Below are positions 38,886-58,398 of a stretch of 64,000 bases of DNA, piece by piece; the stretch's first letter is position 1; each line of letters starts with the position of its first letter. Both the position numbers and the translations under genes were made by a program. The stretch is from an uncultured Dehalococcoidaceae bacterium (lineage in GTDB: Bacteria; Chloroflexota; Dehalococcoidia; Dehalococcoidales; RBG-16-60-22): positions 1,175 through 65,174 of the forward strand of contig CAYPDM010000001.1 of the NCBI GenBank assembly GCA_964409485.1, written 5' to 3'. The notes under the pieces are model-generated. The model was not told the origin of the DNA. It ran no database searches and saw only the letters and a program-made list of their open reading frames with translations.

Positions 38886-40739
38886 TTAACGTGTTTTTAA
38901 GCCCAGTCCCTTCAGTTTGGAGGCGGTCGGTGTGCCGTTCTTATCCCAGCCGCGTTCGGCGTAGTACTCGTCGAGCATTTCATCGAGGTCCTTCTGGCTT
39001 ATAAGCTGCCCCTTGGATGCACCCGCCTTGATGGGTTCCGTCATGAGACGCTTGGGGAAGGTGTCGTCCTTGCGGGTGAAGCCCGCGCCGATATTGAACA
39101 GGCGGGCGACGTTATTCAACCTTTCCCCGATTTTCTCGATATCTCCGGCGGTGAAGTTCATTCCGGAGGCGGCGTTAACCAGGTCGGCGGTATTCTGGCA
39201 GGCTATCCCCGGCACCGCCATATCAAGCAGGAAGGCGCACATCGGGGCGCAGTCGCAGGTAACGCTGCGGATGTCTTGGTTCCACTTGGTCAGCCTTCCC
39301 TTACCTTCGATAGCCATTCTATCCACTTTTTCCGGCACGGGAATATCGAAGATTTCCTGGAAAGCGTAGCCCCGGTTGTGGTCAGCGCCGGTATAGGACG
39401 TGGCATAGTTAAGACCGTGCGCCTTGGCGCCCCGCACGTCGTAGGCTGGCAGTTCCAGTCCCTTAACGTGCATGGCGTAGAACTCGGAGCCCTTGCCGAT
39501 TATTTCGGCGGCTTTTCTGGTACCCTGACTAAGGATATCCCCGATGCCCTCGCGGTAGGTTATTTTACGCAGCATTTCCAGAAGGATGCTGTGGTTCCCG
39601 AACTTGAGTTCCAGTCCGTCAGTATCTTTTTTGGTGAGGATTCCCTTTTCGTAAAGCTCCATGGCGAACCCGATGGCCACACCTGCGGACATGGTATCCA
39701 GTCCATACTCGTCACAGAGACGATCGGCCGCGATTACCGCCGGTAAATAATCAATTCCCAGCGTGCTACCCAGCGAATAGGTTGTCTCATACTCGGGGCC
39801 TTCACTCATATAGCCTGCGTATGGCCCGGCTGTGACCAGTTTTATCTGGCTACAGCCTACCGGGCAGTCGTGACAGTGGGCTTTGTGGATAATCATCTTG
39901 GCTTGAGCCGCGTCACCGAGTCCCTTGACCATGTCGATTTCACCGGTAGCTGACCAGTTATTGATGGGATAGATGCCCATTGCCGAGGTAGCGTCTACGA
40001 CCATCGGCGTGCCCGATTTCGAAAACTGCGGATAGAGCACTGGACTTTCCTTCATGGCCTTGTTCATCGCCTGCCGGGCTTTCCTGAATTTCTCGGCATC
40101 GACCACATTAGGACGTTTAGTGCCTCGCACGGCGATGGCTTTGAGGTTCTTGGAGCCCATCACCGCCCCCAAACCCTTTCTTCCCGCAGCGCGGCGCTCG
40201 TTGACAATGCAGGCCATGGGACTCAGGTTCTCTCCGGCGGGGCCTATGCAGGCGATCCGGTAATTCTGGTCGCCGAGTTCATCCTTGATAACCAGCTGCG
40301 TATCGGTGGTCAACATGCCACTCACCTTATCGGCGTTGCGGAAACGCACCTTGCCGTCTTTGATGGCTACATAGGTGGGCTTTTCTGCTTTGCCTTCGAT
40401 GATTATCATGTCGTAGCCGGCCATTTTCATCTCGGCGGGGAACTGCCCACCGGCGAGGGCCATGCCGACGGCACCCGTCAGCGGCGACTTAGCCACCACG
40501 GCCATCCGGCTGGCACAGGCGGCTCCGGAAGCTGTCAGCGGCCCCACGGCAAAAATTAATTTATTCGCCGGGTCCAGCGCCGGTGTTTTCGGCTTCACTT
40601 CGTCGTAGAGGTATTTAATCGCAAACCCTGCCCCTCCCAGGTAATCCCGGACAAGCTCATCGGGGATTACTTCCTCCCGGCTGGTTTGGTCGGTGAGGTT
40701 TATTCTTAATATCTTGCCTGCATATCCACCTTTGTACAT
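38886..40739 (-). CDS. aor: aldehyde:ferredoxin oxidoreductase family enzyme, copy 2
   Basis: 617 aa. N-terminus GKILRINLTDQTSREE...YLGGAGFAIKY and CHDCPVGC (CX2CX3C). RBS AAGGAGG upstream. Confidence 0.85.
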   Translation of the reverse strand: MYKGGYAGKILRINLTDQTSREEVIPDELVRDYLGGAGFAIKYLYDEVKPKTPALDPANKLIFAVGPLTASGAACASRMAVVAKSPLTGAVGMALAGGQFPAEMKMAGYDMIIIEGKAEKPTYVAIKDGKVRFRNADKVSGMLTTDTQLVIKDELGDQNYRIACIGPAGENLSPMACIVNERRAAGRKGLGAVMGSKNLKAIAVRGTKRPNVVDAEKFRKARQAMNKAMKESPVLYPQFSKSGTPMVVDATSAMGIYPINNWSATGEIDMVKGLGDAAQAKMIIHKAHCHDCPVGCSQIKLVTAGPYAGYMSEGPEYETTYSLGSTLGIDYLPAVIAADRLCDEYGLDTMSAGVAIGFAMELYEKGILTKKDTDGLELKFGNHSILLEMLRKITYREGIGDILSQGTRKAAEIIGKGSEFYAMHVKGLELPAYDVRGAKAHGLNYATSYTGADHNRGYAFQEIFDIPVPEKVDRMAIEGKGRLTKWNQDIRSVTCDCAPMCAFLLDMAVPGIACQNTADLVNAASGMNFTAGDIEKIGERLNNVARLFNIGAGFTRKDDTFPKRLMTEPIKAGASKGQLISQKDLDEMLDEYYAERGWDKNGTPTASKLKGLGLKTR

Positions 40740-40804
40740 CGGATTACCTCCTTTTAGTATATGGTAATCATACTTACTATGGTCAGATCAATCCCAAACA
40801 AATC

Positions 40805-42019
40805 TTATTCAAAAATCCCTTCTAGTAGATACTTATCATACTCTTCCTCGGACATGCCTAACAGGTCTCGACAGATGTATTCTGTATGTTCACCGAGGCA
40901 GGGAGCGACGTTATACAGCCTCGCAGGTGTCTTTGATAATCGGGATGGTTGTCCCAGGTGCGAAAATCTCCCGAGCTCCTTATGGTTCTCAACCCAGAAA
41001 CACTCTCTTTCTTTCAGTTGCACATTGTTATACAGATCCTCTGCATTCTGAACAACGCCCGCAGCCACCCCCACTTTTTGAAGCATTCTCATAATTTCCT
41101 CAGCCTCATGTTGAGATGTCCACTGCTCTATCGACCGGTTAAGCTGCGCTTCGTTTTTCTTTCTGTCCGTAGCGGTACGGAATTCTGGCTTTTTCAGCCA
41201 GTCTGGTTCTCCAATTGCATTACAAAATGCCTGCCACTCCGTATCAGTAAGTACGCTGATAGCACACCAGCGGTCATCTCCTTTACACCGATAGACGCCA
41301 TGTGGCACTGCGTAATCGCTTGAATTTCCCCTTGCCTTCTCTTCTTTCTTGTTCACTAAATAATTGATCAGGGACGGGGCTAGAAGCTGGAGGCCGACCT
41401 CGAATTGAGAGACATCTATCAACTGCCCCTTGCCGGTTTTTCTCCGGTAATCTAACGCACCTATCAGGGCGGTAGCTGCGAAATGCGGTACTAAATAATC
41501 GGTATAAGCAACCATTAAAGATATTGGTTCTTGCTCCGGCCAACCAACGAGATTAACGATCCCGGCTAAACCGTTAATATGGTTGCCAAGCCCCGGATGG
41601 GTAGCCGCTGGGCCCGTCAAACCCTGGTTTGAATTACGTATCATGATGATGTCCGTTTTAATTTTTACCAGGTCATCGTAGCCCAATTTCCAACGCTCCA
41701 TCACCCCGGGTCTATGGCTATCCGCAACGACATCTGCGCTAGAAACTAATTTTCTGGCGATCTTCAAACCATTAGGTTTGTTCAGGTTAAGACTGATGCT
41801 GTATTTATTTGCGGCAAAATAGGCAAAGTAGCCGGCCCGATCAACTCCGGCAACCTCGTCTTTATATGGTGTGGATGTCCGCAGGAGGTCAGGCCGCTGG
41901 AAAGATTCTATACAGATCACCGTGGCGCCGTAGTCAGCCAGATATTTCAGGGTCAACGGACCGGCAATCGCCCAGCCAAAGTCGACGACTATTATCCCAT
42001 TAAAAACACTCTTATCCAT
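40805..42019 (-). CDS. family III (CaiB/BaiF-type) CoA-transferase, subunit/paralogue 2
   Basis: 404 aa. N-terminus GIIVVDFGWAIAGPLTLKYLADYGATVICIES fits the family III signature. Confidence 0.8.
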   Translation of the reverse strand: MDKSVFNGIIVVDFGWAIAGPLTLKYLADYGATVICIESFQRPDLLRTSTPYKDEVAGVDRAGYFAYFAANKYSISLNLNKPNGLKIARKLVSSADVVADSHRPGVMERWKLGYDDLVKIKTDIIMIRNSNQGLTGPAATHPGLGNHINGLAGIVNLVGWPEQEPISLMVAYTDYLVPHFAATALIGALDYRRKTGKGQLIDVSQFEVGLQLLAPSLINYLVNKKEEKARGNSSDYAVPHGVYRCKGDDRWCAISVLTDTEWQAFCNAIGEPDWLKKPEFRTATDRKKNEAQLNRSIEQWTSQHEAEEIMRMLQKVGVAAGVVQNAEDLYNNVQLKERECFWVENHKELGRFSHLGQPSRLSKTPARLYNVAPCLGEHTEYICRDLLGMSEEEYDKYLLEGIFE

Positions 42020-42062
42020 GTGTTTTTCTATTCGCTTTCAGTTTCCCAGGATTCGCCATGTT

Positions 42063-43316
42063 CTATATCACCCCCCTTTGCTGCAGAGCGGTCAGCTTGG
42101 AATGAGATAGACCCAGTTCACCCTGGTAAATATCGAGGTTATGTTCGCCAATTAAAGGAGCCCTGTGCTTAATCGTTAGCGGCGTTTGAGACAGCTTGGC
42201 GAAAGCACCGGGGTATGTAATGCTGGTTGATAGCTCGGGATGGTTGACCTCCACCCAGAAGTCCCTGGATTTCAACTGGGTATTTTCTAATATATCTTTA
42301 CTGGTGCAAACAGGGCATAACATTATTCCCCTTTTTTGAGCCTCATTGTAAAGTTCTTCTTTTGTATATTTCATGAACAGGCCGGCAATTGGAGCTTCTA
42401 TTAAGTCCTGCATCTCTTGAGTTTGATTCGCCATATCAAAAACTTCCCAGTCAAAGTCCTTCAAGTATTCGGGAACCATATTCTCCTCTTCCATCCACTC
42501 GACAATTGCCTTGTTAGTCTTGGCTCCGAAGGCACCACCCAAGATGTAAAATAGCACATATCCGTCCTGACATTTCCACAACAGACGTTGCTTGGTACCC
42601 GTCCACCGGCCAGTCATATAGGAGCCTGCTCGCCTCAAGACATTCTGGTTTAACTCCCAAAGAGGAATTGCGTTAGCAATCTCCCACAGCACACACTCCT
42701 GGGCTGATACATCGACGTGCTGCCCCTCCCCGCTGGTTTCACGATAGAAATGGGCCACCATTGAAGCGGCCGCGCTATGAGCCGAGGCGAGTAGAAAAAC
42801 CTGGGGCAGGCTGATCCTCAAAGGAGGTTGGTCTGGATTTCCCGTGATATACATCAGGCCACCCATAGCCATGACTACAATATCCGTCGCTTTATAATTC
42901 TTATACGGTCCATTAAGTCCAAAAGGTGTAATAGATGTCATTATCAAACGAGGATTTATCTTGCTTAGAGTCGTATAGCCAAGGCCAAGCTTGTCCAAAT
43001 AATCGGGCGTGAAAGATTCAATTACGAAGTCAGCTGTCTTGATTAATTTCTTGAAAATCTGCTGCCCATCTCTGGACTCGATATCTAGGGTAATACCTCG
43101 TTTGTTGAGATTATAGGCAAACCAATAAAGGCTTTTCTCGGGATTGGGGATATCATGATAAAAAGGTCCGAGGTTACGTGACTCGTCTCCTCCCGGGCTC
43201 TCGATCTTTATGACATCGGCTCCCAGGTCAGCGAGTATTTTACCGCAGAGAAAGCCTTTTTCGTTAGTTAAATCTAGCACACGATAAGAGTCCAGGAGCC
43301 CTTTTTGCTGTTCCAT
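42063..43316 (-). CDS. family III (CaiB/BaiF-type) CoA-transferase, subunit/paralogue 1
   Basis: 417 aa. YRVLDLTNEKGFLCGKILADLGADVIKIESPGGDESR fits the family III signature. Confidence 0.8.
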   Translation of the reverse strand: MEQQKGLLDSYRVLDLTNEKGFLCGKILADLGADVIKIESPGGDESRNLGPFYHDIPNPEKSLYWFAYNLNKRGITLDIESRDGQQIFKKLIKTADFVIESFTPDYLDKLGLGYTTLSKINPRLIMTSITPFGLNGPYKNYKATDIVVMAMGGLMYITGNPDQPPLRISLPQVFLLASAHSAAASMVAHFYRETSGEGQHVDVSAQECVLWEIANAIPLWELNQNVLRRAGSYMTGRWTGTKQRLLWKCQDGYVLFYILGGAFGAKTNKAIVEWMEEENMVPEYLKDFDWEVFDMANQTQEMQDLIEAPIAGLFMKYTKEELYNEAQKRGIMLCPVCTSKDILENTQLKSRDFWVEVNHPELSTSITYPGAFAKLSQTPLTIKHRAPLIGEHNLDIYQGELGLSHSKLTALQQRGVI

Positions 43317-43398
43317 ATACTAAAAACTTTCTTCTTAAACATCATTCGCATTACCAGCGTGAAAATTCTTTTAGAAATGGCGTTCAAAAAATATGAAC

Positions 43399-44607
43399 TC
43401 ATCCCGTTTTTGGGCGGGTCGGCTTTTTAATCTTACTCTGCAAACGCGTATTAAGGGGTGTAATTTGATTTTCTCTAGACGGTAGAGCTACGATGGCAAT
43501 GCCGGGCATTACATCTTCTCCCCTCTGGTTAACCGCATGGCGTTCAATCTCCACACAGTAATCCCCATCATCATCGACATATTTTTTGATAACTCTGCCT
43601 TTAAGCCAGACTACGTCTGATAGATAAACGAATTTTCTGTATTCGGCATAGCTCCTCTTCAACCATGCGTCATCTCCCATCCAGTTGGTAATTAGATGAA
43701 TTCCCCAACAGTGCCTCTGCAGACCGACATCATACGCCTGTGGAAGTCCCATAGCATTAGCGGCCTGTTTGTTGTAGTGAACGGCAAAGATCGGCTCAAG
43801 AGCATTTGTATTTGGATCCCTGAAAGCCCATGCTGGATGCTTGCGGTAAGTTCTTAATGACACACCATGTGCCGCTATCCTTGGTATGGGCACTCCCCCA
43901 CCGATAATGTAAGCGACCTCATCAGTAGTTCCTAATGGACCCTTGACGACTGGCTTTAGCTCTTCGCCAATGTCAACGTCCTCCCAGTAACGGGGGACAG
44001 CTCCTCTAATTTCTTCGGAGAGGATTTCATTCTCAATTTCTTTTAGCTGCTTTTCTGTCCAAGGATGAGGGAGCTTAATGCTTTTTTGGGTGCCTTTCTG
44101 CTGGGCTTTACCTCTGGCAAAGCGTACCACCCACCAATGATACCTGGCTACCAAATCACCTCTCTGGTTCCAGTACTGGTTATCGAAATGGTCGATGACA
44201 GTCTCCTCGGCAAAGCTGCTCTTCTTCGGCCCATCAAAGCTTTTAAAAACACACTCTGCGGTTATTTTATCACCGAGATATATTGGCTTTAGGAACTCAA
44301 CGTCACAGCCGGCATGAAAACCACCAAGCCCCCGCCATCCAAACTGCACCTGGGCAAAACATGCCCAGATAAAGGAGGGAGGAGCAATAATGCTCTTATA
44401 TCGTGTATTTTCGGCATAATCGGCATCAACCCATAATCTATTCGGGTCACCGATACCTGCTGCGAATTTTAATATGGCCATCCTAGTAGCATATTCATTA
44501 TGCGTAGAGTCATCGATACGGAGTTTTGTCCCCAGCTTTGCTCGCATTCCATCTATCATCTCTCGAGTAATCGAGGCAGTTTCCATTTTTATTTTCTCTT
44601 CTTTCAT
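43399..44607 (-). CDS. double hot-dog fold (FAS1-like dehydratase N-domain + MaoC-like) enoyl-CoA hydratase/dehydratase
   Basis: 402 aa. N-half ILKFAAGIGDPNRLWVDADYAENTRYKSIIAPPSF; C-half ends in a MaoC-like beta sheet (VVWLKGRVIKKYVDDDGDYCVEIERHAVNQRGEDV). The start could be the second ATG (44586). Confidence 0.55.
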   Translation of the reverse strand: MKEEKIKMETASITREMIDGMRAKLGTKLRIDDSTHNEYATRMAILKFAAGIGDPNRLWVDADYAENTRYKSIIAPPSFIWACFAQVQFGWRGLGGFHAGCDVEFLKPIYLGDKITAECVFKSFDGPKKSSFAEETVIDHFDNQYWNQRGDLVARYHWWVVRFARGKAQQKGTQKSIKLPHPWTEKQLKEIENEILSEEIRGAVPRYWEDVDIGEELKPVVKGPLGTTDEVAYIIGGGVPIPRIAAHGVSLRTYRKHPAWAFRDPNTNALEPIFAVHYNKQAANAMGLPQAYDVGLQRHCWGIHLITNWMGDDAWLKRSYAEYRKFVYLSDVVWLKGRVIKKYVDDDGDYCVEIERHAVNQRGEDVMPGIAIVALPSRENQITPLNTRLQSKIKKPTRPKTG

Positions 44608-44743
44608 AAAGCACTTCTTATATTAGAATATTTAGGTAATGAACCAGAATAAGTTACTATTTTATAAGGACTTGACCAATTGTGTATTTATATCACGAAA
44701 AGAACTCTAGTTTTACAAAATAAGAATATTTAGCTCCTTAAAA

Positions 44744-44804
44744 AATAATACGTGTACGTACATCATTTGTGATATAATATATCTTATAGGTTAATGATTG
44801 TCAA
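44744..44804. promoter_or_regulatory. promoter-operator cassette B in the divergent hydratase-operon / MarR intergenic region
   Basis: Minus strand: TTGACA 44804-44799, 17 nt, TATATT 44781-44776, 14 nt, GTACGTACACGTAT 44761-44748. Plus strand: extended -10 TGATATAAT 44770-44778. The flank AATAATACGTGTACGTAC (44744-44761) matches site A at 17 of 18 positions. Confidence 0.55.
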
Positions 44805-44920
44805 TTATTCAATGGAGCTTAAAGAAGATGCTCTTGATTTCACTGTTTAATTATTTTAAATTATATTAAGTCGTAAATTATGAAATAAAGAGGTAATGAA
44901 ATAAGGAAGGACTGAAAACG

Positions 44921-45427
44921 ATGAGTAAAGTCGAAGACAAAGAATATGACTTATGGATATTGTTAAGCCGGGTATATCACCTGATCGCTAAACTAAGAAA
45001 CTTAGAGCTTTTAAAATATAATATTCTACCGGTGCAATCTTATATTTTATTCATTATCAAAGCTCTCGGAAACGAAACTACCCCTACAGAAATATCCGGA
45101 TACGTGTATCAACAGAGAAGTTCAATCTCGGACATCCTCAATAGGATGGTAAAGCAAGGTCTAATAGTAAAAAGAAATCAATCGGGTGGGAATAGACGCG
45201 TAATAGTCACCTTAACTAACAATGGAGAAAGGGCTCTCGCCCTTTCCGCTGATAGAGAATATCTTCACAAAGTGATGTCCTCATTAACTGAGGGTAAAAA
45301 GCGGCAATTGGAATCATCCCTAGAAATGTTACGCGATGCCGCCATCAATGAACTTTCTGTAACCCAGAAGACAGTCATGCGGCCTTCTCTAATATCGGAG
45401 TATTATAGGAAGAAAAACCAATTGTAG
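44921..45427 (+). CDS. MarR-family winged-helix transcriptional regulator
   Basis: 168 aa. LLSRVYHLIAKLRNLELLKYNILPVQSYILFII...TPTEISGYVYQQRSSISDILNRMVKQGLIVKR shows the MarR wHTH pattern. RBS AAGGAAGG upstream. Confidence 0.8.
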   Translation: MSKVEDKEYDLWILLSRVYHLIAKLRNLELLKYNILPVQSYILFIIKALGNETTPTEISGYVYQQRSSISDILNRMVKQGLIVKRNQSGGNRRVIVTLTNNGERALALSADREYLHKVMSSLTEGKKRQLESSLEMLRDAAINELSVTQKTVMRPSLISEYYRKKNQL

Positions 45428-45664
45428 TTAGCGGCAGTTTTGATAATCAATTATTCACTATGAAACATCTGCAGTCGAAAAAAGTAAAAAACGTCGATAT
45501 ATTCTTTCCGAAAGTCGGATTAAGATTCCCGTTGTGGCAACTTTTATATACAGATAGTTGCTATAACTTTGATCTGCCCCCAGCGGTGGTAGTTTATGGT
45601 TAGGGAGAGGAGTGGTAAGTAACACGCATTCAGGGTAAGGTCGGCTCTTTAAAGGAGGCGGAAT

Positions 45665-48157
45665 ATGTCAACCGTACACAGCGATAAAAAAGTCAAAGAT
45701 GCAGGCAACTGGCAGGAGTCCTTTACTCCAACCTGTTCCGAGCGCGTTCACAGAGTGAAAAATCGTGTTCTCAGACCGATGGAGATTTGTCTGGAACGTG
45801 CTCGTGCCGAGATGAAGGCTTTAGAACAATACAAGAACGAACCCAGAGTCATTCAGCGGGCACGCATCTTTGAGACCTATCTTAAAGAGAAAACCATCTA
45901 TATTCTGGAAGATGAGCTCATCGCAGGCAATATCACCAGCAAAATACGCGGTGCTTCATTCTCCAGTGAAATGTCTCGTTTTGTAGATGAAGAGCTTGGC
46001 GACCCGGTAAAGGACTTTGAGATTCGCCCGTACGAAAAGATTATAATTACCCCCCAAGAGAGGAAAGAGATTCGGGAAGTGCTTATTCCCTACTTCAAGG
46101 GGAAGACCCTTGGCGATTATATTCTGGAAATAGCTGACGAAGAAGTTAAGGAAAAGGCTTTCTCGATAACCTCTTCCTGCTCTCACATTCCGGTCATCGC
46201 TGATCTATCATTAGACAAAGACGTTGGCCATCAGATGGCCAACTACGAAAAGGTGCTCCATAAAGGTCTCAAAGGCATCAGAGAAGAGGTCGAGTGGTAT
46301 CTGGCCCAGCTCGACCAGCCGTATCAGCACTTTGGGCTTCAGGAGAAGCGTGACTTCTACAAGGCGGTACTGATTGCACTTGATGCGGCTATGGCCTACG
46401 CCAGGAGGTATGCTGACCTGGCTCGGGAAATGGCAGCCAAAGAAGCTGACCCCAAGCTCAAGCAGGAACTTGGGCACATCGCAGAGGTTTGCCAGTGGGT
46501 GCCGGCAAACCCTGCTAGGGACTGGTGGGAAGCCTTACAGTCCGTATGGATGATACACGTCCTCATCCACTGCGATGTTTACAACCTTGCCAACTCCCTG
46601 GGCCGCTTCGACCAGTATATGTATCCCTTCTACAAGAAATCAGTAATTGACGAGAAAACGATGAGCCGTGACGAGGCTCTGGAGCTGCTGGAATGTTTCT
46701 GGATAAAGTTTAATGAGTGGGCCATACTACTTAGCTATGACGTTGCCAGTTACCAGCCAGGGCAGGGGCTAAGTCAGACGATAACTATCGGGGGCCAGAC
46801 CCACGACGGCAGAGACGCCTGCAACGAAGTTACTATGCTCTGTCTGGAAGCCGAGGAACAATTAGCCCGGCCCCAGCCAGAATTCGCCATGAGAATATGG
46901 GAAGGGACACCTGATAGTTACCTAAAGAAAGCCACCGAGCTCATCCGTCTGGGCTGGGGTAAGCCGAAATTTATTGGCGACCGGAAAGCTATTCAAATGA
47001 CGGCTAAGGCCTATCCCGATAGAACCATCGAGGACTGGCGACAGTGTGTGATGATGGGGTGCTCGGAGCTTTGTTTGCCTCACATAACCATGCAGCATAG
47101 CTGGGAAGGAGTTTGCATTCTACCCAAGATACTGGAACTGGCGCTGAACAACGGAAAGTGTGCCCTCTGCGGCCGACAGATAGGACCCCTGACCGGTGAT
47201 CCCAGGAATTTTGAGTCTATGGCAGCAGTGAGGCGGGCGCTTCAGGAGCAGGTGTTTTACTGGATGAAGCACATGGCCAGGGGCATAAAATTAGTGAAGG
47301 AGGAACAGGCTGAGAGGATGATGGCTCCGTTTTGCTCTTCCCTCTCGGAGGGCCCGTTGCAGAAGGGGCTTGACCTTGCTCGGGGTGGTGCCTGGTACAC
47401 TACCTACGGTGTATATCTCGCCGGCCTCGCCGACACCGCTGACTCTCTAGCCGTGATTGACAAGCTAATCTATAACGACAAAAAGATAACATGGGACCAA
47501 ATGCTTGAGGCTATCAAGGCCAATTGGGAGGGCCACGAAAATCTTCGCCAACTTTGCATTAACGGCGTACCTAAATATGGTAATGATAATGATTTTGCCG
47601 ATAGCTGGGCGTCCTGGGTCATGGACACCTGGTACGATAACGTGGACTGGATTAACACCCAGAAGGATCTGCTGCCGTACTACGGTGGTTTATACATTGG
47701 TGCCGGGATTATCGGTCAGAACAATGTAACCTTCGGGCCCTGGCCTGGTGCTCTACCCAATGGACGCATCTATCCAAGACCTCTGGCTGACTGTATATCT
47801 CCGTCTCCAGGCGTCGACAAGAATGGCCCCACGGCTGTAGTCAAGTCAGTTAGTAAACTGCCAACACATCGGTTTGCCATGGGTGGTCCCCTGAATCTGA
47901 GGCTGAGTCGTCAACTCCTGGCCACTGACCGCGATCTGGACAACTTCGTATCCTTCCTCAGAGCCATTGAAGAACTGGGGATATATCACACACAGTTCAA
48001 TGTGATTTCATCGGAGCTCCTGCGCAAGGCGATGAAAGAACCAGAAAATTATCGGGACCTGCTGGTCAGGGTAGCCAGCTACTGTGCCTACTTTTGCGAG
48101 CTTACCGAGGAGCAACAGCTCGATATTATTAATCGCACCGAGCAGCAAGCCTGGTAA
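45665..48157 (+). CDS. glycyl radical enzyme family protein (PFL-like fold), radical-site motif reads RVASY
   Basis: 830 aa. C-terminal fingerprint YRDLLVRVASYCAYFCELTEEQQLDIINRTEQ. Cys loop VMMGCSELC (Cys466 at 47060-62, Glu468). RBS AAAGGAGG. An activase gene follows. Confidence 0.85.
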   Translation: MSTVHSDKKVKDAGNWQESFTPTCSERVHRVKNRVLRPMEICLERARAEMKALEQYKNEPRVIQRARIFETYLKEKTIYILEDELIAGNITSKIRGASFSSEMSRFVDEELGDPVKDFEIRPYEKIIITPQERKEIREVLIPYFKGKTLGDYILEIADEEVKEKAFSITSSCSHIPVIADLSLDKDVGHQMANYEKVLHKGLKGIREEVEWYLAQLDQPYQHFGLQEKRDFYKAVLIALDAAMAYARRYADLAREMAAKEADPKLKQELGHIAEVCQWVPANPARDWWEALQSVWMIHVLIHCDVYNLANSLGRFDQYMYPFYKKSVIDEKTMSRDEALELLECFWIKFNEWAILLSYDVASYQPGQGLSQTITIGGQTHDGRDACNEVTMLCLEAEEQLARPQPEFAMRIWEGTPDSYLKKATELIRLGWGKPKFIGDRKAIQMTAKAYPDRTIEDWRQCVMMGCSELCLPHITMQHSWEGVCILPKILELALNNGKCALCGRQIGPLTGDPRNFESMAAVRRALQEQVFYWMKHMARGIKLVKEEQAERMMAPFCSSLSEGPLQKGLDLARGGAWYTTYGVYLAGLADTADSLAVIDKLIYNDKKITWDQMLEAIKANWEGHENLRQLCINGVPKYGNDNDFADSWASWVMDTWYDNVDWINTQKDLLPYYGGLYIGAGIIGQNNVTFGPWPGALPNGRIYPRPLADCISPSPGVDKNGPTAVVKSVSKLPTHRFAMGGPLNLRLSRQLLATDRDLDNFVSFLRAIEELGIYHTQFNVISSELLRKAMKEPENYRDLLVRVASYCAYFCELTEEQQLDIINRTEQQAW

Positions 48158-48257
48158 AAACCTCTGCTTCTGAGAACTGAGGGCCATCTATGTAAGCAGA
48201 CGTTATCCCAGGGATTTCAGTGTCAAGATAGATGACGCAAAGGGAGCATCAAAAGAC

Positions 48258-49187
48258 TTGGCAAAAAATTCAGAGACGACCACCGCAAAGCGACTCGTTC
48301 TAAGCATTACCAGAATGACCATTCACAATGGCCCGGGAATACGTACCTTAATTCTGTTCAAAGGGTGCCCGTTACGTTGCCTATGGTGTTCGACGCCGGA
48401 GGCTCAGAAGGACGAAGCTGAGATTGCTCTTTACCCGGATAGATGCATCCATTGTGAACAGTGTGTCCCGGTCTGCTCCACGAACGCTATAAACTTAACG
48501 GGCGAGACGGTGAGCATTAATCGTGCTATATGCAACAATTGCGGCAAATGTGCTCAGGTTTGCTACACAGAAGCCATAAAACTTCTAGGACAGGAGATGA
48601 CTATCGAAGAACTGCTTACGGAGGTGAAAAAGGACGCCATTGTCTACAAACACTCCCGTGGCGGAGTCACCATCTCAGGAGGAGAGCCCCTGTTGAATCC
48701 TGAATTCACTCAGGAATTGCTTCGGGCATTCAAAGAAGAGAACATCAGTGTTGGAGTTGATACCTGCGGTCATGTGCCCTGGAAGAACATTGAGAAAGTG
48801 TTACCCTATATTGATTTTTTTCTCTGGGATATAAAGCATATGAATGGCAAAGAACACAGGAAATTCACCGGTGTCTCTAACAAGCTTATTCTAAGTAATG
48901 CTCGTTCTGTTTCCGAGAGAAATATACCTCTTTATATCAGGGTGCCCATAATCCCGGGCTACAACGATTCAGAAGAGAATATCAGGGCTATCTGTGAGTT
49001 CGCCCGTGATTTATCTTCACTGGTAAATATAGACCTTTTACCATTACACCATCTGGGGAAGGCAAGGTACGATAGCCTGAACCTTGCCTATCAGATAGCT
49101 GATATTCCTCTTATTCCAGATAGTGTCTTGCATAACATAAAAAGGCTGGTAGAATCTTACCAGTTGAATTGCAGTATTGTCGGCTAA
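48258..49187 (+). CDS. glycyl radical enzyme activating enzyme (radical SAM, with two auxiliary ferredoxin-type clusters)
   Basis: 309 aa. HNGPGIRTLILFKGCPLRCLWCSTPE (CX3CX2C), CIHCEQCVPVC, CNNCGKCAQVC and GGVTISGGEPLL. TTG start 48258 after AGGGAG; the alternative ATG would cut into the conserved N-terminus. Confidence 0.85.
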   Translation: MAKNSETTTAKRLVLSITRMTIHNGPGIRTLILFKGCPLRCLWCSTPEAQKDEAEIALYPDRCIHCEQCVPVCSTNAINLTGETVSINRAICNNCGKCAQVCYTEAIKLLGQEMTIEELLTEVKKDAIVYKHSRGGVTISGGEPLLNPEFTQELLRAFKEENISVGVDTCGHVPWKNIEKVLPYIDFFLWDIKHMNGKEHRKFTGVSNKLILSNARSVSERNIPLYIRVPIIPGYNDSEENIRAICEFARDLSSLVNIDLLPLHHLGKARYDSLNLAYQIADIPLIPDSVLHNIKRLVESYQLNCSIVG

Positions 49188-49201
49188 AAAGGAGAAGCGA
49201 A

Positions 49202-50089
49202 ATGATAAATATTGATATTGATGAGCTACTCAGTGGCTCAATTGACATGCATATGCATCCGGGCCCTGCCGGAGGTCCTTGCCGTCTCGATGCTCTTGAA
49301 GCAGCCGAGCAGGCAAAGCAGGCCAGAATGAGGGGCATTGTCCTTAAGAGCCATAGTTATACTGCCTCTGCAGTGGCAATCATCGTGAATCAATTAGTAC
49401 CTGACATACACGTTTTCGGAAGTGTCTGCCTCGATTATGAAATCGGGGGGCTTAATTCTCACGCCGTGGAAAACGCAGCCTATCTCGGGGCTAAAGTAGT
49501 CTGGATGCCTACCTTCTCTTCCGCCAATTCAATCAATAAGATGAGGGCGTTGGGACTTCCCCTTAAAGGTGAAGGACTCTCACTAATAGATGATGCGGGC
49601 AAACTAGTACCGGAAATGGAACCCATACTCACACTTATAAAAGAACATGATATGATATTAGCTACTGGTCATATTTCTCCGCAGGAAACGTTAATTCTCC
49701 TAAATGAGGCGCAGAGAATCGGGATAAAAAAATACATCATCACCCATCCTACGGATAAAGAATTTTCAGAAAAACTTTTAAGTATTGATGAGCTGCAGCA
49801 ACTGGCCAAGATAGGGGCGTTTATTGAGTTCACTCTGGTTGGAATGTTACCAAATGAGTTTTGTCATGACCCAGCACAAATCGCGCGGACAATCAAGACT
49901 ATCGGCGCGGAACACTGTATCATCAGTACCGATCTTGGTCAACCCCAAAATCCGCTCCCGGTCGAGGGTATGAGGTTACTTATGGCCACCCTGCTTCATC
50001 ACGGAATATCACAGGAAGAAGTTGAGTTGATGGCTAAAATAAATCCGGCAACTCTTTTGGACCTAGATAAAAACTCTGAAATTCATTAA
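49202..50089 (+). CDS. amidohydrolase-superfamily (metal-dependent TIM-barrel hydrolase-like) protein
   Basis: ORF 49169..50089; start moved to ATG 49202 after AAAGGAGAAG. HxH (DMHMHPG), later ATGHIS, ITHP and ISTDLG give the His/His/Asp order of the amidohydrolase fold. Substrate unknown. Confidence 0.5.
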   Translation: MINIDIDELLSGSIDMHMHPGPAGGPCRLDALEAAEQAKQARMRGIVLKSHSYTASAVAIIVNQLVPDIHVFGSVCLDYEIGGLNSHAVENAAYLGAKVVWMPTFSSANSINKMRALGLPLKGEGLSLIDDAGKLVPEMEPILTLIKEHDMILATGHISPQETLILLNEAQRIGIKKYIITHPTDKEFSEKLLSIDELQQLAKIGAFIEFTLVGMLPNEFCHDPAQIARTIKTIGAEHCIISTDLGQPQNPLPVEGMRLLMATLLHHGISQEEVELMAKINPATLLDLDKNSEIH

Positions 50090-50165: not shown

Positions 50166-51947
50166 ATGACAAGTAAAAAAATAGCAGTTTTGAGACCGCA
50201 AGGCAAAGCCTCTCCAATACAATTGGAGCCTATGGCACCTCGGCTTGATACCCTCGAGGGCAAAACAGTATACATCGTAGACATGAATTTTCCGCGAACG
50301 CATCAATTCTGGGAAGAGATGCAAAAAATGCTCGCCAACAGATACCCCGAGACGACCTGGGTACTCAGGATTAAGGTAGGCACTTACTTTCATAATGACC
50401 CAGAGCTATGGGCTGAAATTAAGGAAAAAGGCGATGGAGTGATAATGGGTATCGGTCAGTTAGATACCTGTACGCCGTCGGTCATCATCTTTTGCTCGAT
50501 ATTAGAAAAATTAGGGCTGCCTACAGCACCCGTTGTTACTGAGGCATTTCCAAGAATCGCAAAGAGCTTTGCGTATAAGAAGGGAATGCCCGAACTACGA
50601 TTTACTTTTGTTCCCCATCCTTTCGCAAATAGACCACTCGAGGTACACCGGAAATATCTAGAGGGTAACGACCCAATAAACGGCAAGCCAGTTTTAGATG
50701 AAATTGTTGAGGCATTGACCAAACCGATAACTGATAAGGAAACGAAGACAGGGACTATAGATAGGTCAATGCCGAGGCTGTTAGAGCCTGATACCCCGGA
50801 GAATCTGGAGCGCCTCTTTATTGAAAAAGGATGGACTGATTATCTTCCGATAGTGCTTCCTACGGAAGAAAGAGTAGCCGAGATGCTCGAAGGAACGAGC
50901 CATAAACCTGATGAAGTAGTTGGCATAATGCAACCCATCCCTCCCAACGAGGTCTGGGACAACCTCACCAAGCGGCTTGGTTCCGGTGGACTGAGAAGAG
51001 GAGCTGAAAGAGAGCATTTCCCGGTAGTTATGCAACCCTCCCCTCCTCATGAGGCCTGGGAGTATACCGTAGAGCATATCGCCATTAACGCCGTGATGGC
51101 AGGAGCCAAACCAGAGCATTTCCCGGTAATATTGGCCATAGCATCGACAGGGGCAACCTCGCTGTTCAGTTCCGCGACTTCTATGACGAGGATGGTCGTC
51201 GCTAATGGGCCTATACGAAAAGAGATAAATATGAATTGTGGTCTGAGTGCACTGGGCCCGTTTAATCAGGCTAACGCTGTCATTGGAAGGGCCTGGACAC
51301 TCATATCCAAGAATCTAGGAGGATCGATACCGGGTGAAACTTATCTGGGAGATTTAGGTAATAATACCAACTACAATAATAATTGTTTCGCAGAGAACGA
51401 GGAGGTACTGCCCGAAGGATGGAGTCCTTTACATGTACAAAAGGGTTATAAGTCAGATGAAAGCGTTGTTAGTATTTTAGGTGGTTGGAGTATGCTTAAC
51501 TACGCTGCTTATAAACCACATCCACATCACGAAATAATGAAACGGCAGCTGCAAAGTTTTGAAACCAGTGGAGCCGGCACACACCACACTCCTGGAATAA
51601 ACCCCGGAACTCAAGCTACTTTTTTGTTAAGCCCGATAACGTCAAGGGATCTTAAGAATGAAGGCTTCAATAGCAAGGAGCAGTTAAGCCAATGGCTCAA
51701 GGAAAATACCTATATGACTCTTTGGAACTATTGGGCAGCTATGCCTGATGACCTTGAATCTGGCAAGGCAGGTGTCGAGCCATTTGCGTCTTTGTTGAAA
51801 CTTCCACCGGAAGCGAACTCGCCGCGACCACTTATCCTGCGCGATATACCGGTTGAGATAGTGGTAGTTGGAGGGGGAACCGATGCATTTTGGATGGCTG
51901 GTGATCTTTCTTGTATGGCGTCAGCATCAATAGATACATGGAGGTAA
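50166..51947 (+). CDS. unassigned 593-aa protein, paralogue P1 (two-domain, function unknown)
   Basis: Long ORF, last gene of the GRE transcription unit. Clearly homologous to 53700..55487 (blocks LPIVLPTEERV, IAINAVMAGAKPEHFPVILA, GPIRKEINMN). No named family recognised. Confidence 0.7.
   Translation: MTSKKIAVLRPQGKASPIQLEPMAPRLDTLEGKTVYIVDMNFPRTHQFWEEMQKMLANRYPETTWVLRIKVGTYFHNDPELWAEIKEKGDGVIMGIGQLDTCTPSVIIFCSILEKLGLPTAPVVTEAFPRIAKSFAYKKGMPELRFTFVPHPFANRPLEVHRKYLEGNDPINGKPVLDEIVEALTKPITDKETKTGTIDRSMPRLLEPDTPENLERLFIEKGWTDYLPIVLPTEERVAEMLEGTSHKPDEVVGIMQPIPPNEVWDNLTKRLGSGGLRRGAEREHFPVVMQPSPPHEAWEYTVEHIAINAVMAGAKPEHFPVILAIASTGATSLFSSATSMTRMVVANGPIRKEINMNCGLSALGPFNQANAVIGRAWTLISKNLGGSIPGETYLGDLGNNTNYNNNCFAENEEVLPEGWSPLHVQKGYKSDESVVSILGGWSMLNYAAYKPHPHHEIMKRQLQSFETSGAGTHHTPGINPGTQATFLLSPITSRDLKNEGFNSKEQLSQWLKENTYMTLWNYWAAMPDDLESGKAGVEPFASLLKLPPEANSPRPLILRDIPVEIVVVGGGTDAFWMAGDLSCMASASIDTWR
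50928..51131 (+). repeat. in-frame 2 x 102-bp tandem duplication inside P1
   Basis: Copy 1 (50928-51029) and copy 2 (51030-51131) share their ends (ATGCAACCC..CC.CC at the 5' end, GAGCATTTCCCGGTA at the 3' end) but have diverged centres. The peptides are MQPIPPNEVW...EREHFPVV and MQPSPPHEAW...KPEHFPVI. Confidence 0.75.
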
Positions 51948-52243: not shown

Positions 52244-53671
52244 CTATGGTGAAGTTTGCTTCACTACTTTCGAGAAGCTGGTTCGTATTTCGCACCGGTC
52301 ACAGACATTCAGGTACTGGTCCGTGTTTACCGAATAATCGAGCCAGTCAGGAACCCCCCGTGCCCAAGGTTTACCGGTCTTTGCGAAGCTAGCCCACAAG
52401 CCCATCATGGCCTCCGAAACATTTCTGTCAATCGCACTCAGGCCGGGATTGGCCGTTTTGGCGCCGGCCTGTTGCGCTAGCATATACACGGAGGTCCACC
52501 AACCGGTGGAATTATCCCAATCGCCGAAGACGTAAGGAAGCTCCATCGAATGTACGGAGACGCAGCCTTCATTCCTCCATACTGCGGGTACCTGGTCGAA
52601 GATGCAAGCATATCCGTTACATCCCTGCTTATTCACAGATTCCAGCATCTCGATGTAGGCCGGAATAATATAAGGCATGACTAGTGGACCAGGCCCGGTC
52701 AACTCGCCTAGGTTAGCAGAAACTATGAGGGGCACAGCATTGCAGGAACCGGACTTAAACGTATTCTCGGGACTCTCCGGCAGCACCCAGCCATCCACGG
52801 CTGCATCCCAAACAAAGGCCGGGCGGTTGGTAGGAGTGCTCGGCCCTTCTATTGCCTGACTGGCTTTGATGATTTCTATAAAGGGTATCGCGCGCGCCTG
52901 CTCCAGTGGGTCAACAGCCGAGTCTATCCCCAGCTTTTCAAAAAGCGTTTTTCCACTGTTTTCGATATTCACCAGTGGTTTGCTGAGTAAGATGGCCATA
53001 GCCGTGCCGCTTTCGCAGATGGCTCGGTGGAACAGCCCCTTTGCAAGAGGTGACGACATCATAATGGACACCTTGGCTCCGCCGCCGGACTCTCCGAAGA
53101 TGGTGACATTGTCTGGGTCGCCGCCGAATGCCGCGATGTTGTCTCGCACCCACTGAAGGGAGGCGATGAGGTCAAGGAACAAGTAATTACCCGACACGCC
53201 CATCGGCGATTCTTCCGAAAGCGCGGAATGGGCTAACAGTCCAATCGGTCCAAGTCTGTGATTCAGAGTAACAACCACGACGCCATATTGAGGCAGGCGG
53301 TAGTTGTTCCATATTCTGTCATTACCACATCCCATCGAGTATCCTCCGCCATGCATCCAGACCATGACCGGTAGTTTCTCATCTGGTTCGCGTGCTGGTG
53401 TAACCACGTTCAGATAAAGGCAGTCTTCACTTTGGGGCATTTCACCTGATATACCGGGCATGAGAGGCTGGGGTGAGATATGACTGAATTGGGTACATTC
53501 GCGGATTCCTTCCCAGGGCACAACAGGCTGCGGTGGTTTCCAGCGCAAGTCTCCCACCGGAGGAGCTGCAAACGGGATTCCACGGAAGATAGATACTTCT
53601 TTCCCCGGCTCACCAATTAGAGTACCTGAAACGTAGCCCTTATCGGTTCTGACAATCTGCATATCATACAC
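52244..53671 (-). CDS. type-B carboxylesterase/lipase family serine hydrolase
   Basis: 475 aa. FRGIPFAAPPVGDLRWKPPQP, EDCLYLNV and the nucleophile elbow GESGGG. Confidence 0.85.
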   Translation of the reverse strand: MYDMQIVRTDKGYVSGTLIGEPGKEVSIFRGIPFAAPPVGDLRWKPPQPVVPWEGIRECTQFSHISPQPLMPGISGEMPQSEDCLYLNVVTPAREPDEKLPVMVWMHGGGYSMGCGNDRIWNNYRLPQYGVVVVTLNHRLGPIGLLAHSALSEESPMGVSGNYLFLDLIASLQWVRDNIAAFGGDPDNVTIFGESGGGAKVSIMMSSPLAKGLFHRAICESGTAMAILLSKPLVNIENSGKTLFEKLGIDSAVDPLEQARAIPFIEIIKASQAIEGPSTPTNRPAFVWDAAVDGWVLPESPENTFKSGSCNAVPLIVSANLGELTGPGPLVMPYIIPAYIEMLESVNKQGCNGYACIFDQVPAVWRNEGCVSVHSMELPYVFGDWDNSTGWWTSVYMLAQQAGAKTANPGLSAIDRNVSEAMMGLWASFAKTGKPWARGVPDWLDYSVNTDQYLNVCDRCEIRTSFSKVVKQTSP

Positions 53672-53699
53672 CTAATTTATAAAAATTCCGTAGCTTTTA

Positions 53700-55487
53700 T
53701 TAGCAGCCTGATTCGGTCAATGTGGCTCCTCTTATCAACTTTGTCTTGTGTGCCGTACGGAAATATGACATTCCAAAAGAATAACCCGGTATACTACCGG
53801 ACACGACGATATGAATGTCTTCCGGGTTTACGACAGGGACCTTTCCTCCTGGTTTGAGGGATTCTTTAATCACCGGTAAGCGGTCTTCAGGAATGGCATC
53901 GTGTGGATAGAATATGTCTATATCGGGGGGTTTGGTGTTAATCCTGTCATGTATACCCTGGATTTCCTGTTCACTGAGCTCTTCGTACGGTACAAGTGTA
54001 CTTTCATAGAGATAATCTCGCAGGCTTCGCTTGCTATTATAACCGATACGCTGCAGCATGATAGCCATTTCGGGATGAATGACGAGTATGTGTTTTCTGA
54101 GATGAGCCATGGGGTTAGCCACCCCAACTTTATATTGAGCAAACGTGCCGCGGTCAGCAGCTATATCTTTCACCATGCTGTCGAGGACCGGCTTTACATC
54201 CCAGGGCTCAACCACTCCTCCGCCATATATCCTCATACCTAAACCACCCATGACGGTGTCCACGGTCACGCAACTATCTTCCGGCTTGTAACCCAGGCCC
54301 TCATTAAACGTTTCCCAGGGGCTCTGCTCTATATTTTCGGCGAAAGTGTAGAAGGTATGCGGGGACGGGCGGCCGATCAGCGCCATATCGATCTCTCCCG
54401 GCCACAGGTAACCGATATTGATCAGGCTCAATCTTACGGCGCGGCCGATGGTATTGTTGGCTCGCCAGCCGTGACCTAATAAGCCTACTCCGGAATTCAT
54501 GTTAATTTCTTTGCCAAGAGGCCCGCTTACCATTATCATAAGAGTGAAGGAGCCTTCTGAACTCATCATGTGAGTGTAAGTACCCTCTTCAGTCAGGCAT
54601 TCCATGGCTGCAATTATCACCGGCAGATACTCAGGCCTTGCCCCCGCCATCACCGCGTTAATAGCTATCTTTTCAACAGTGGCGATACCGTTTCGATAAG
54701 GTACCCGGCCTATAACTTCATTGGGAGAACGCTTGGTCCCTGTTAGCATCCACTTAACGGCCTGTTCCGTGGGAGGTATCAGGGGCAACCCATCGCCCCA
54801 GTGGTTATCAAGGTACAGCCGGTTGAATGATTCAAGGGCGGACTCATAACTCTCCGCAGTAACCTCAACTGTTTCAGCAGTCTTTTTTAAGGCCTTTAGC
54901 TCCGGGTTTTTCTCCTCCGGTGCCAGGGGCCGGTTTAGGGCGTCGATAATAAGGTCAATGGACGCTTCGGCAACAGGCCTAATACTTTCCACGGTCAACC
55001 GGTTCGGGTAATAATCTATTGAAGGCAGGCTTACGATACGTAACGCGGGCATTCCCGCGTCCTCGGCTGACATCTTGGCGGTGTGAGTAGCGTTATCACC
55101 GACCACGAAAACGCCGGGTTTGCCAAGTTTTTCTAATGCGACTACCTGCAAGCACTGAATCCAGCCTCCCATGCCGTTATCGCCGACGCCGTAGATAAAA
55201 GTATCCATTTCTTTTTTTGCCTTCTCCGCCGCCTCGGCATCTCCCCAGACAAGCCGAATGGTCGTCGCTGTTGGATACCTTTCTTTCAGCAGTTCCTCGA
55301 CTGCGATACAGAAATTATCCCCACCTTTCTTACCGTCCCAGATTATTCCGATCTTCTTACCTGCCAGATCCTTTATGCGAGGGTTGATGAGCCCCGAAGG
55401 CACCGGAACTTCAAGCACACCCTGAGGATTTAAACACAACAATGAGACTTTTTCTTTCAATTTTTTCACCCCTTCTTGAAATAACAT
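53700..55487 (-). CDS. unassigned 595-aa protein, paralogue P2 (two-domain, function unknown)
   Basis: Homologous along its length to P1 (HWGDGLPLIPPTEQAV, IAINAVMAGARPEYLPVIIA, GPLGKEINMN, NNTIGRAV). Lies between the UROD-like and esterase genes. Confidence 0.7.
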   Translation of the reverse strand: MLFQEGVKKLKEKVSLLCLNPQGVLEVPVPSGLINPRIKDLAGKKIGIIWDGKKGGDNFCIAVEELLKERYPTATTIRLVWGDAEAAEKAKKEMDTFIYGVGDNGMGGWIQCLQVVALEKLGKPGVFVVGDNATHTAKMSAEDAGMPALRIVSLPSIDYYPNRLTVESIRPVAEASIDLIIDALNRPLAPEEKNPELKALKKTAETVEVTAESYESALESFNRLYLDNHWGDGLPLIPPTEQAVKWMLTGTKRSPNEVIGRVPYRNGIATVEKIAINAVMAGARPEYLPVIIAAMECLTEEGTYTHMMSSEGSFTLMIMVSGPLGKEINMNSGVGLLGHGWRANNTIGRAVRLSLINIGYLWPGEIDMALIGRPSPHTFYTFAENIEQSPWETFNEGLGYKPEDSCVTVDTVMGGLGMRIYGGGVVEPWDVKPVLDSMVKDIAADRGTFAQYKVGVANPMAHLRKHILVIHPEMAIMLQRIGYNSKRSLRDYLYESTLVPYEELSEQEIQGIHDRINTKPPDIDIFYPHDAIPEDRLPVIKESLKPGGKVPVVNPEDIHIVVSGSIPGYSFGMSYFRTAHKTKLIRGATLTESGC

Positions 55488-55543
55488 TTATTTATCAAGG
55501 CAAAAGCCATGCTTCTATACATTAGACTTCTTTGTTTTATTAA

Positions 55544-58332: not shown

Positions 58333-58398
58333 AAAGCCTCTGAAACCTATTTATATCCGCGTAAGGTGAAAGCGAAATAAAAAATAAGGAGTGAAAAA

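Follow-up and report, generated by a model that had tools for sequence, protein, structure and literature searches.

The locus described here raises the question of what reaction is catalysed by the radical enzyme at its centre, and which of the surrounding genes act in the same pathway. The enzyme, of 830 aa, is encoded at 45665..48157 on the + strand of a 64,000-nt stretch of DNA (the window) from an uncultured Dehalococcoidaceae bacterium (contig CAYPDM010000001.1). A reading of the sequence alone (the original prediction) had named it a glycyl radical enzyme (GRE), either an eliminase or a decarboxylase, whose aldehyde product would be oxidised by an aldehyde:ferredoxin oxidoreductase (AOR), activated by a pair of CoA-transferases and then acted on by a hydratase. 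All the genes on which that reading was built, ie those for the AOR, two family III CoA-transferases, a double hot-dog protein, a MarR regulator, the pyruvate formate-lyase (PFL)-like enzyme and its activase, were identified with Pfam or NCBIfam models. The gene arrangement first noticed is genuine and goes well beyond chance. Its interpretation was partly right, in that the enzyme is eliminase-like, the locus is free of bacterial microcompartment (BMC) genes and the link to an AOR recurs. The name given to the enzyme could not be kept, as the radical glycine is replaced by serine.

The 830-aa product scored 571 bits against PF02901 and 86 bits against PF01228 ('Gly_radical') in a Pfam scan, and is predicted to have the PFL-like ten-stranded barrel domain with its catalytic Cys loop. 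Its C-terminal radical motif reads L-V-R-V-A-S805-Y. The GRE fingerprint is RVxG[FWY]; RVASY departs from it at the radical glycine itself, which is replaced by Ser805 (codon AGC, 48077..48079, +), and the catalytic Cys is kept. Ser occupies position 805 in 120/120 of the nearest database clusters (63-100% identity). Homologues were clustered at 90% identity, giving at least 120 clusters with Ser, and 119 full-length sequences were aligned; Ser805 is invariant in all of them. In the related loci examined, the Ser codons were all AGY (AGC 11, AGT 4), which is the codon type found for the radical Ser of serinyl radical enzymes (SREs; Fu et al. 2024, PMC11528403). When representatives at 50% identity were searched exhaustively, the closest two (74% and 51%) both had Ser and the next (39%) had Gly, while Thr- and Ala-bearing relatives were found among the matches of 33-39%. 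On these identities the SRE clade is sharply bounded, its nearest non-Ser relative being 39% identical.

The SREs belong to the aminoacyl radical enzymes (AAREs), described by Fu et al. (2024, JACS 146:29645, PMC11528403), who demonstrated a stable radical by electron paramagnetic resonance on DaSRE of Dethiosulfatibacter aminovorans after treatment with its own activase. The window enzyme is 64-93% identical to proteins from metagenome-assembled genomes (MAGs) that Table S2 of that paper names as sources of SREs: 'Deltaproteobacteria isolate Zod_Metabat.1351', 'Clostridiales isolate AS06rmzACSIP_159' and 'Dehalococcoidia bacterium isolate W403' (identities 93% for locus L007, 67% for L013 and 64% for L015). 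Identity to DaSRE is about 50-55%, an approximate figure owing to damage by optical character recognition in the DaSRE gene sequence. By pairwise identities the protein falls in the SRE clade. We assign it to the SREs of the AARE class, and not to the GREs, because of Ser805, the invariance of that residue in 119/119 homologues, the matches to the Table S2 MAGs and the distance to the nearest non-Ser relative. Public databases annotate SRE proteins as PFL-family glycyl radical enzymes. A June 2026 review lists no AARE with a known function (PMC13450708), and no function was added by the later papers mentioning AAREs that a literature search returned.

The Cys loop was correctly described from the beginning as G-C466-S-E468. 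The CxE residues Cys466-Ser467-Glu468 (47060..47068, +) would supply the thiyl radical site and the general base; Cys466 is present in 119/119 and Glu468 in 109/119 of the aligned homologues, and the residue between them is T in 86, S in 16 and V in 12. The CxE motif, a hallmark of eliminases and isomerases (PMC13450708), is the one expected of a GRE-type 1,2-eliminase, and Fu et al. (2024, PMC11528403) placed the AAREs beside the eliminases. Among proteins in the PDB the highest scores were to eliminases: 485 bits to CutC, 420 to HpzG, 417 to HpyG and 398 to HypD, with HpzG, HpyG, HypD and glycerol dehydratase (GD) all in the range 396-420. Isomerases (HplG, PflD, YbiW) scored 353-359 bits, X-succinate synthases 265-312, decarboxylases 168-257 and PFL 64. 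The NCBIfam models ranked the GRE families in the same way, and all the equivalog cut-offs were missed (score/cut-off: CutC 505/1050, HypD 498/1100, HpsG 496/1000, HpfG 494/1000). Of the two reaction types first put forward for the enzyme, the eliminase is the one that these scores favour. No open reading frame (ORF) for a small GRE subunit lies in the 100-bp gap between the SRE gene and the activase gene, again as first reported.

The pocket was compared by sequence alignment to CutC, in which Tyr208, Asp216, Phe395, Thr502 and Tyr506 were placed from the spacing between them. In the SRE, His189 (46229..46231, +) stands at the position of Asp216, Ser at that of Phe395, Ser479 at that of Thr502 and Val483 at that of Tyr506. 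His189 is present in 111/119 homologues. Across the clade the His/Cys/Glu triad is conserved and other presumed pocket positions (306-312, 364-375, 467-485 and 676-693) vary, a pattern in keeping with paralogues that differ in substrate. In GD, the leaving hydroxyl is proposed to receive its proton from His164 (PMC13450708). Our best reading is that the SRE is a radical 1,2-eliminase using His189, Cys466 and Glu468, most likely of the dehydratase type.

The SRE gene is followed directly by that for a radical SAM activating enzyme (48258..49187, +), in which CPLRCLWC forms the CX3CX2C motif and two ferredoxin-like Cys motifs are present. It scores 340 bits against TIGR02494 (cut-off 174), and its position and family are those of a cognate activase. 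On the opposite strand, a divergent unit begins with a 402-aa double hot-dog protein (MaoC/FAS1_DH-like; 43399..44607, -), putatively an (R)-specific enoyl-CoA hydratase/dehydratase. It continues with two family III CoA-transferases, of 417 aa (42063..43316, -; PF02515, 290 bits) and 404 aa (40805..42019, -; PF02515, 338 bits), and a tungsten/molybdopterin AOR of 617 aa (38886..40739, -). OppB/OppC-type ABC permeases follow in the same direction as the AOR (37884-38840 and 36974-37870, -; gaps of 13-45 bp), and then the DctP, DctQ and DctM genes of a TRAP transporter for carboxylate-type uptake (35539-36573, 34915-35463 and 33556-34857, -). Gaps of 13-82 bp separate the minus-strand genes, with the exception of one of 400 bp before DctP. 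The AOR, with both AFOR_N and AFOR_C domains, scores 465 bits to the Pyrococcus furiosus enzyme (1aor), 326 to FOR and 213 to BamB. It is therefore closest to AOR in the strict sense, and it falls below the NCBIfam equivalog cut-off. The best NCBIfam matches of the CoA-transferases (formyl-CoA, succinyl-CoA:mesaconate and succinate-glutarate transferases) were far below their cut-offs; those to the succinyl-CoA:mesaconate CoA-transferase and mesaconyl-CoA isomerase models, among others, reached 172-185 bits against a cut-off of 700. DctP matched solved binding proteins with about 90 bits at best and with mixed ligands, isethionate included, which was uninformative as to its ligand. The window also has a second AOR-family gene (19458-21368), not linked to the SRE and only 27% identical to the first. 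It adjoins a gene set on the opposite strand of NuoF-like, 2Fe-2S and 4Fe-4S proteins (21465-25910), and 19458-25910 may form an AOR electron-transfer module of its own.

Neither a BMC nor an Aldedh Pfam domain was found in the approximately 60 non-nested window ORFs of at least 150 aa together with one small-ORF family, and a PduA query had no match in the window or in 34 related loci. The pairing of BMC shell genes with a CoA-acylating aldehyde dehydrogenase in the neighbourhood of the radical enzyme, by which the glycyl radical enzyme microcompartments (GRMs) are recognised, is accordingly missing here, and in this the original prediction was sound.

In all, 38 loci with an SRE gene were collected (numbered with the prefix L), mostly from MAGs of Dehalococcoidales or Dehalococcoidia and often with several SRE paralogues in one MAG. 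The neighbours within 10 kb of the SRE gene were clustered for 30 non-redundant loci. An activase was present in 18 of these, and the commonest neighbour after it was the double hot-dog protein (11). Family III CoA-transferases (21 genes) and AORs were each found in 10 loci, SBP5 binding proteins in 9, DUF6282 proteins in 8, short-chain dehydrogenases (SDR) in 7, DHDPS-like proteins and MarR regulators in 6 each, the 593-aa UGSC protein in 5 and the carboxylesterase in 4; acyl-CoA dehydrogenases (ACAD), AMP-ligases, enoyl-CoA hydratases (ECH), PTE and URO-D-like proteins were found in 3 each. TRAP genes also adjoin the SRE gene in L004, L005, L010 and L011. The AOR lies one to three genes from the SRE in L015, L016, L017, L020 and L033, and the SRE-linked AORs fall into four or five lineages which are only 33-40% identical to one another.

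The arrangement of these genes is variable. L006, whose SRE is 92% identical to that of the window, has the window's gene set in another order. Between its CoA-transferases and AOR stands a two-subunit 2-oxoacid:ferredoxin oxidoreductase (18816-20973 of that locus), which points to a possible 2-oxo acid intermediate where the pathway takes its L006 form. L024 (57%) has the compact order MarR, two CoA-transferases, hot-dog, SRE, activase, DUF6282; L016 has AOR, hot-dog, SRE, activase; L015 has SBP5, SRE, activase, AOR, ECH and three CoA-transferases; and in L017 and L020 a PTE gene stands some way before SBP5, SRE, DUF1801, AOR and SDR. In the near-duplicates L004 and L005 (62%) the order is CoA-transferase, hot-dog, AMP ligase, activase, TRAP, DUF6282, Zn-dependent alcohol dehydrogenase (Zn-ADH), SRE. 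Directly after the SRE comes a MOP aldehyde oxidoreductase of the Desulfovibrio gigas type (885 bits, a full-length orthologue) and then a Zn-ADH. L037 and L038 have Zn-ADHs as well, and the contexts of other SREs include Zn-ADH, OYE, aconitase-like dehydratases, ICL/PEP-mutase, Amidohydro_2, dienelactone hydrolase and patatin. Two tandem SRE genes with a single activase were seen in L022, L025 and L037; tandem enzymes sharing one activase are typical of threonyl radical enzymes, not of SREs (Fu et al. 2024, PMC11528403). In a mirror-tree comparison, identity tracked that of the SRE for the activase (rho 0.70), the hot-dog protein (0.42, p 0.003) and the DUF6282 protein (0.46). Judged by these neighbourhoods, the conserved core is the SRE, its activase, the DUF6282 protein and the hot-dog protein, with or without MarR, and the aldehyde-handling and CoA-activating enzymes are frequent but exchangeable additions. 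The conservation of neighbours that was first put forward as a check was thus borne out in part: the link to AOR, CoA-transferases and hot-dog protein recurs in paralogous loci, and the AOR and CoA-transferases are both missing from two orthologous ones (below). The AOR link is recurrent, not obligatory. A literature search for GREs with an AOR and CoA-transferase, and for GREs of Dehalococcoidia, returned nothing relevant.

The best explanation of these genes, to which we give about even credence, is a pathway running from radical eliminase to aldehyde, AOR, CoA-transferases and hydratase; its reaction type and the order of its steps are what we infer from family and context. The activase would take the C-alpha hydrogen from Ser805, as shown in the homologue DaSRE. 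The radical would then move from Ser805 to Cys466, and the thiyl radical would take a hydrogen from the carbinol carbon of the substrate. Glu468 would deprotonate the hydroxyl there and His189 would protonate the vicinal leaving group, itself most likely another hydroxyl; overall this would be a 1,2-elimination to an aldehyde. The tungsten-type AOR would oxidise the aldehyde to a carboxylate with reduction of ferredoxin; in paralogous modules the aldehyde would be oxidised by the MOP-type molybdenum aldehyde oxidoreductase or reduced by the Zn-ADHs. The pair of family III CoA-transferases, or AMP-ligases in some paralogues, would then activate the acid, and the double hot-dog enzyme would hydrate or dehydrate the CoA ester. 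The substrate would be imported by the SBP5/Opp or TRAP systems, or both, and unmasked by the carboxylesterase or the DUF6282 protein. These last genes suggest an imported, carboxylate-bearing hydroxy substrate masked as an ester, lactone or amide, and the TRAP transporter, together with CoA-transferases nearest to dicarboxylate-type transferases, likewise hints at a carboxylated compound. The strongest argument for an aldehyde product is that four or five AOR lineages and the unrelated MOP occupy the same slot. More tentatively, and possible rather than probable, the SREs may be an expanded family of 1,2-eliminases in non-dehalogenating Dehalococcoidales. Several paralogues per genome would act on imported carboxylate-bearing hydroxy substrates, freed by esterases or amidohydrolases, with the aldehydes passing through a tungsten AOR or MOP to CoA-transferases and hot-dog enzymes.

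A number of points weigh against the eliminase-AOR pathway, and several of them would suit a different enzyme, ie a radical enzyme of the isomerase type or one that forms a ketone (like HplG, YbiW/PflD, or HpsG giving hydroxyacetone) to which the AOR is no partner, oxidising instead the aldehyde of a DHDPS-like aldolase or serving other pathways. GREs of the isomerase type also carry CxE and yield ketones. DHDPS-like genes occur in the six SRE loci counted above and twice in the island that contains the window's SRE, where their products could be an alternative source of aldehyde; the pairing of a DHDPS-family aldolase with an AOR has its precedent in the non-phosphorylative Entner-Doudoroff pathways of archaea. 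The identity of the AOR does not track that of the SRE (rho -0.22), which weakens a strict partnership of the two. The orthologous loci L019 and L035, with SREs 90-91% identical to that of the window, have neither AOR nor CoA-transferases within 10 kb; they keep hot-dog, MarR, SRE, activase, DUF6282 and UGSC genes, and upstream, in the place of the window's CoA-transferase and AOR genes, they carry others, which in L035 are two of the PrpD family. The SREs of L001 and L036 have no such partners at all. The 2-oxoacid:ferredoxin oxidoreductase of L006 would also fit an oxo-acid intermediate. The genomes are probably rich in AORs and CoA-transferases, as the second AOR of the window suggests. No AARE has yet been assigned a substrate or a product, and the equivalence of CutC Asp216 with GD His164, on which the role given to His189 leans, is presumed. 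However, HplG, PflD and YbiW score well below CutC, HpzG and HpyG (353-359 against 417-485 bits), MOP stands directly after the SRE in L004 and L005, where there is no DHDPS-like gene, and the AOR-hot-dog-SRE and SRE-activase-AOR arrangements of L016 and L015 are likewise free of such genes. We consider the isomerase or ketone-forming enzyme unlikely, if the most serious of the competing proposals.

Other readings of the enzyme have much less to recommend them. The decarboxylase of the original prediction would be in keeping with the G-C-S-E loop, which is that of the arylacetate decarboxylase HPAD, with MarR regulators, common in aromatic-acid catabolism, and with a TRAP system, which implies a carboxylate substrate. 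But the middle residue of the loop varies in the clade and is not diagnostic, the scores (168 bits to HPAD, 257 to a second hydroxyphenylacetic acid decarboxylase entry, 320 to IAD) compare poorly with about 500 for the eliminase families, and products such as toluene, cresol or skatole would not need an AOR, a MOP, CoA-transferases or a hydratase. On this much lower similarity, and for want of a role for those enzymes, we rejected the decarboxylase as improbable. Slightly less probable still is a fumarate-adding enzyme like the X-succinate synthases, whose product would go through a BbsEF-like heteromeric family III CoA-transferase pair to beta-oxidation. The adjacent CoA-transferases and hydratase do resemble BbsEF and BbsH of the benzylsuccinate pathway, and ACAD, ECH and SDR genes accompany some SREs (L014, L029). 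It was rejected because TutD and MasD score only 265-312 bits, the small beta and gamma subunits expected beside the catalytic subunit are absent, and the Cys-loop Glu is kept (109/119), which X-succinate synthases are not known to have; in addition the CoA-transferases match no Bbs-type model, and AOR and MOP would have no role. Finally, it is scarcely credible that the protein is a decayed, inactive GRE, its Ser due to a point mutation of the Gly codon or to an error in sequencing. A single G-to-A change does turn GGC into AGC, and the database label is that of a PFL-family glycyl radical enzyme, but the Ser is invariant in 119 homologues of 63-100% identity from many samples, the Cys, Glu and cognate activase are intact, activase identity co-varies with that of the SRE, and a stable serinyl radical forms on DaSRE (Fu et al. 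2024). Taken together, these effectively refute an inactive pseudoenzyme.

The MarR-family regulator (44921..45427, +; Pfam MarR_2/MarR) is encoded between the two divergent units. A 17-nt motif, TGAT(TG/AA)TCAATTATTCA, has exactly two copies in the 64 kb, against a chance expectation of 0.1, and they flank marR, one in each intergenic region: TGATTGTCAATTATTCA (44795..44811) in the divergent region between the hot-dog gene and marR, and TGATAATCAATTATTCA (45441..45457) between marR and the SRE gene. Both are candidate operators. In L008 a near-copy, differing at one position, is found upstream of marR, and the exact pattern was not found in the other SRE loci, which have degenerate copies only. 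We infer that the two divergent units are probably both under repression by MarR, acting at the repeated site. A common operator for the two units, asserted in the first reading, is made plausible by the paired motif but is unproven.

The gene after the activase (49202..50089, +; PF19799, 2e-62) encodes a DUF6282 protein, predicted to be a metal-dependent hydrolase of the amidohydrolase superfamily from its HxH, H, H and D motifs. Its AF2 model (pLDDT 87) matched 2i5g, PHP 1bf6, NagA and TatD in Foldseek (TM about 0.6), ie TIM barrels of that superfamily, in agreement with the amidohydrolase fold assigned earlier. The gene lies directly 3' of the activase gene in the window and in L003, L008, L009, L019, L024 and L035. 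A literature search on DUF6282 gave nothing relevant. The next gene (50166..51947, +), which had been placed correctly after these two and left unassigned as 'P1', encodes a 593-aa protein that can now be given a UGSC domain (PF24696). Its AF2 model (pLDDT 84, pTM 0.86) had no match among PDB folds (TM < 0.2). The protein is present in five SRE-orthologous loci, plus L035.

Beyond it the window holds a carboxylesterase (52244-53671, -), a second UGSC protein (53700-55487, -), a URO-D-like protein of 445 aa (55544-56881, -), DHDPS-like proteins at 57277-58332 and 60105-61139 (+) and SBP5 binding proteins at 58399-60039 and 61233-62876 (+). The two UGSC proteins are 31% identical, with the UGSC domain N-terminal in both. 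UGSC proteins of about 593 aa have hundreds of unnamed homologues, and travel with the SRE in L006, L007, L008, L019 and L035. This accessory set (52244..62876) recurs, rearranged, in L006, L019 and L035. Within it, the block 55544-62876, in which the URO-D-like gene is followed by weakly DHDPS-like and SBP5 genes alternating twice, is conserved in the same three loci. Against solved proteins the SBP5 proteins reached about 150 bits, to AgaA and YliB, which was uninformative as to their ligand.

Elsewhere in the window, 126-7689 is a complete carbon monoxide dehydrogenase (CODH)/acetyl-CoA synthase (ACS) cluster (CdhD-like, Prismane/CODH, ACS beta, CdhD/FeS and a pterin-binding methyltransferase), and the host is therefore capable of the Wood-Ljungdahl pathway, which ferredoxin reduced by the AOR could feed. 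The closest relatives of the SRE are from Dehalococcoidales MAGs, and the host probably belongs to that lineage. The alpha subunit of a formate dehydrogenase (10800-13562) has an in-frame TGA at 11907-11909, within HCARL-U-HAPTV, which is probably a selenocysteine codon, and the organism thus likely uses selenocysteine. Such use is of interest as the UGSC family is annotated '(seleno)protein'. A large serine recombinase (30303-31988) and an integrase-core fragment of an insertion sequence (32786-33289) lie just upstream of the catabolic cluster, and beyond them the GC content drops to 40-52%, from 53-60% before. The block at 33.5-63 kb may thus be an island that is mobile or was acquired recently.

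If the SREs are indeed such an expanded family of eliminases, an aminoacyl radical enzyme would for the first time have a physiological function, and there would be a BMC-free, ferredoxin-yielding way of handling the aldehydes of an eliminase which could couple to the Wood-Ljungdahl machinery of the window. The window and some 30 related loci offer a testable hypothesis in the combination of eliminase, AOR or MOP, CoA-transferases, hot-dog enzyme and DUF6282 protein, and the locus supplies binding proteins that could be screened for ligands. In environmental Dehalococcoidales (MAGs from peat, fen and sediment) the number of SREs far exceeds the 21 catalogued, and given their public labels as PFL-family GREs they are probably misread in metabolic reconstructions.

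Among the known GREs, the enzyme has its best matches, at 396-485 bits, in eliminases of the 1,2 type (glycerol and propanediol dehydratases, HypD/HpyG/HpzG, CutC and IslA/HpsG). Like them it has a CxE Cys loop and no small subunits; unlike them it has Ser as its radical residue, is at most 39% identical and misses the equivalog cut-offs by about half, and its pocket differs from that of CutC in having Ser and Val where CutC has Phe395 and Tyr506. The pathways of GRM1-6 (Cut, Pdu-like) share the logic of radical eliminase to aldehyde to acyl-CoA, often with an alcohol too. In contrast to these, the locus has no shell proteins or acylating aldehyde dehydrogenase, and the aldehyde is proposed to be converted to the free acid by a tungsten AOR or MOP and only then to meet the CoA-transferases. 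The AOR resembles the P. furiosus enzyme over its full length, at 465 bits and with both AFOR domains, but its gene context is different, and no characterised AOR is known to be the dedicated partner of a GRE-family eliminase. The D. gigas MOP, of a molybdenum hydroxylase family unrelated to AOR, fills the aldehyde-oxidising slot in L004 and L005 and is not found in the window. The CoA module is like that of the Chloroflexus 3-hydroxypropionate bi-cycle (SmtAB, Mct, Mch/Meh), both having adjacent family III CoA-transferases and a double hot-dog hydratase. The transferases here, with scores far below the cut-offs, are not orthologues of the Chloroflexus enzymes, and the likeness suggests no more than dicarboxylate-type substrates. 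The SRE class itself was published in 2024, and what is new here is the recurrent SRE neighbourhood and the large environmental expansion of the SREs. The 21 SREs of Fu et al. (2024, PMC11528403) had varied contexts, with a radical SAM enzyme as the sole shared partner and no function. The enzymes described here share with them the GRE fold, the AGY-coded Ser, the conserved Cys and the adjacent dedicated activase, whereas they comprise at least 120 Ser clusters and have recurrent partners in the hot-dog protein, the family III CoA-transferases, the AOR, SBP5 and DUF6282.

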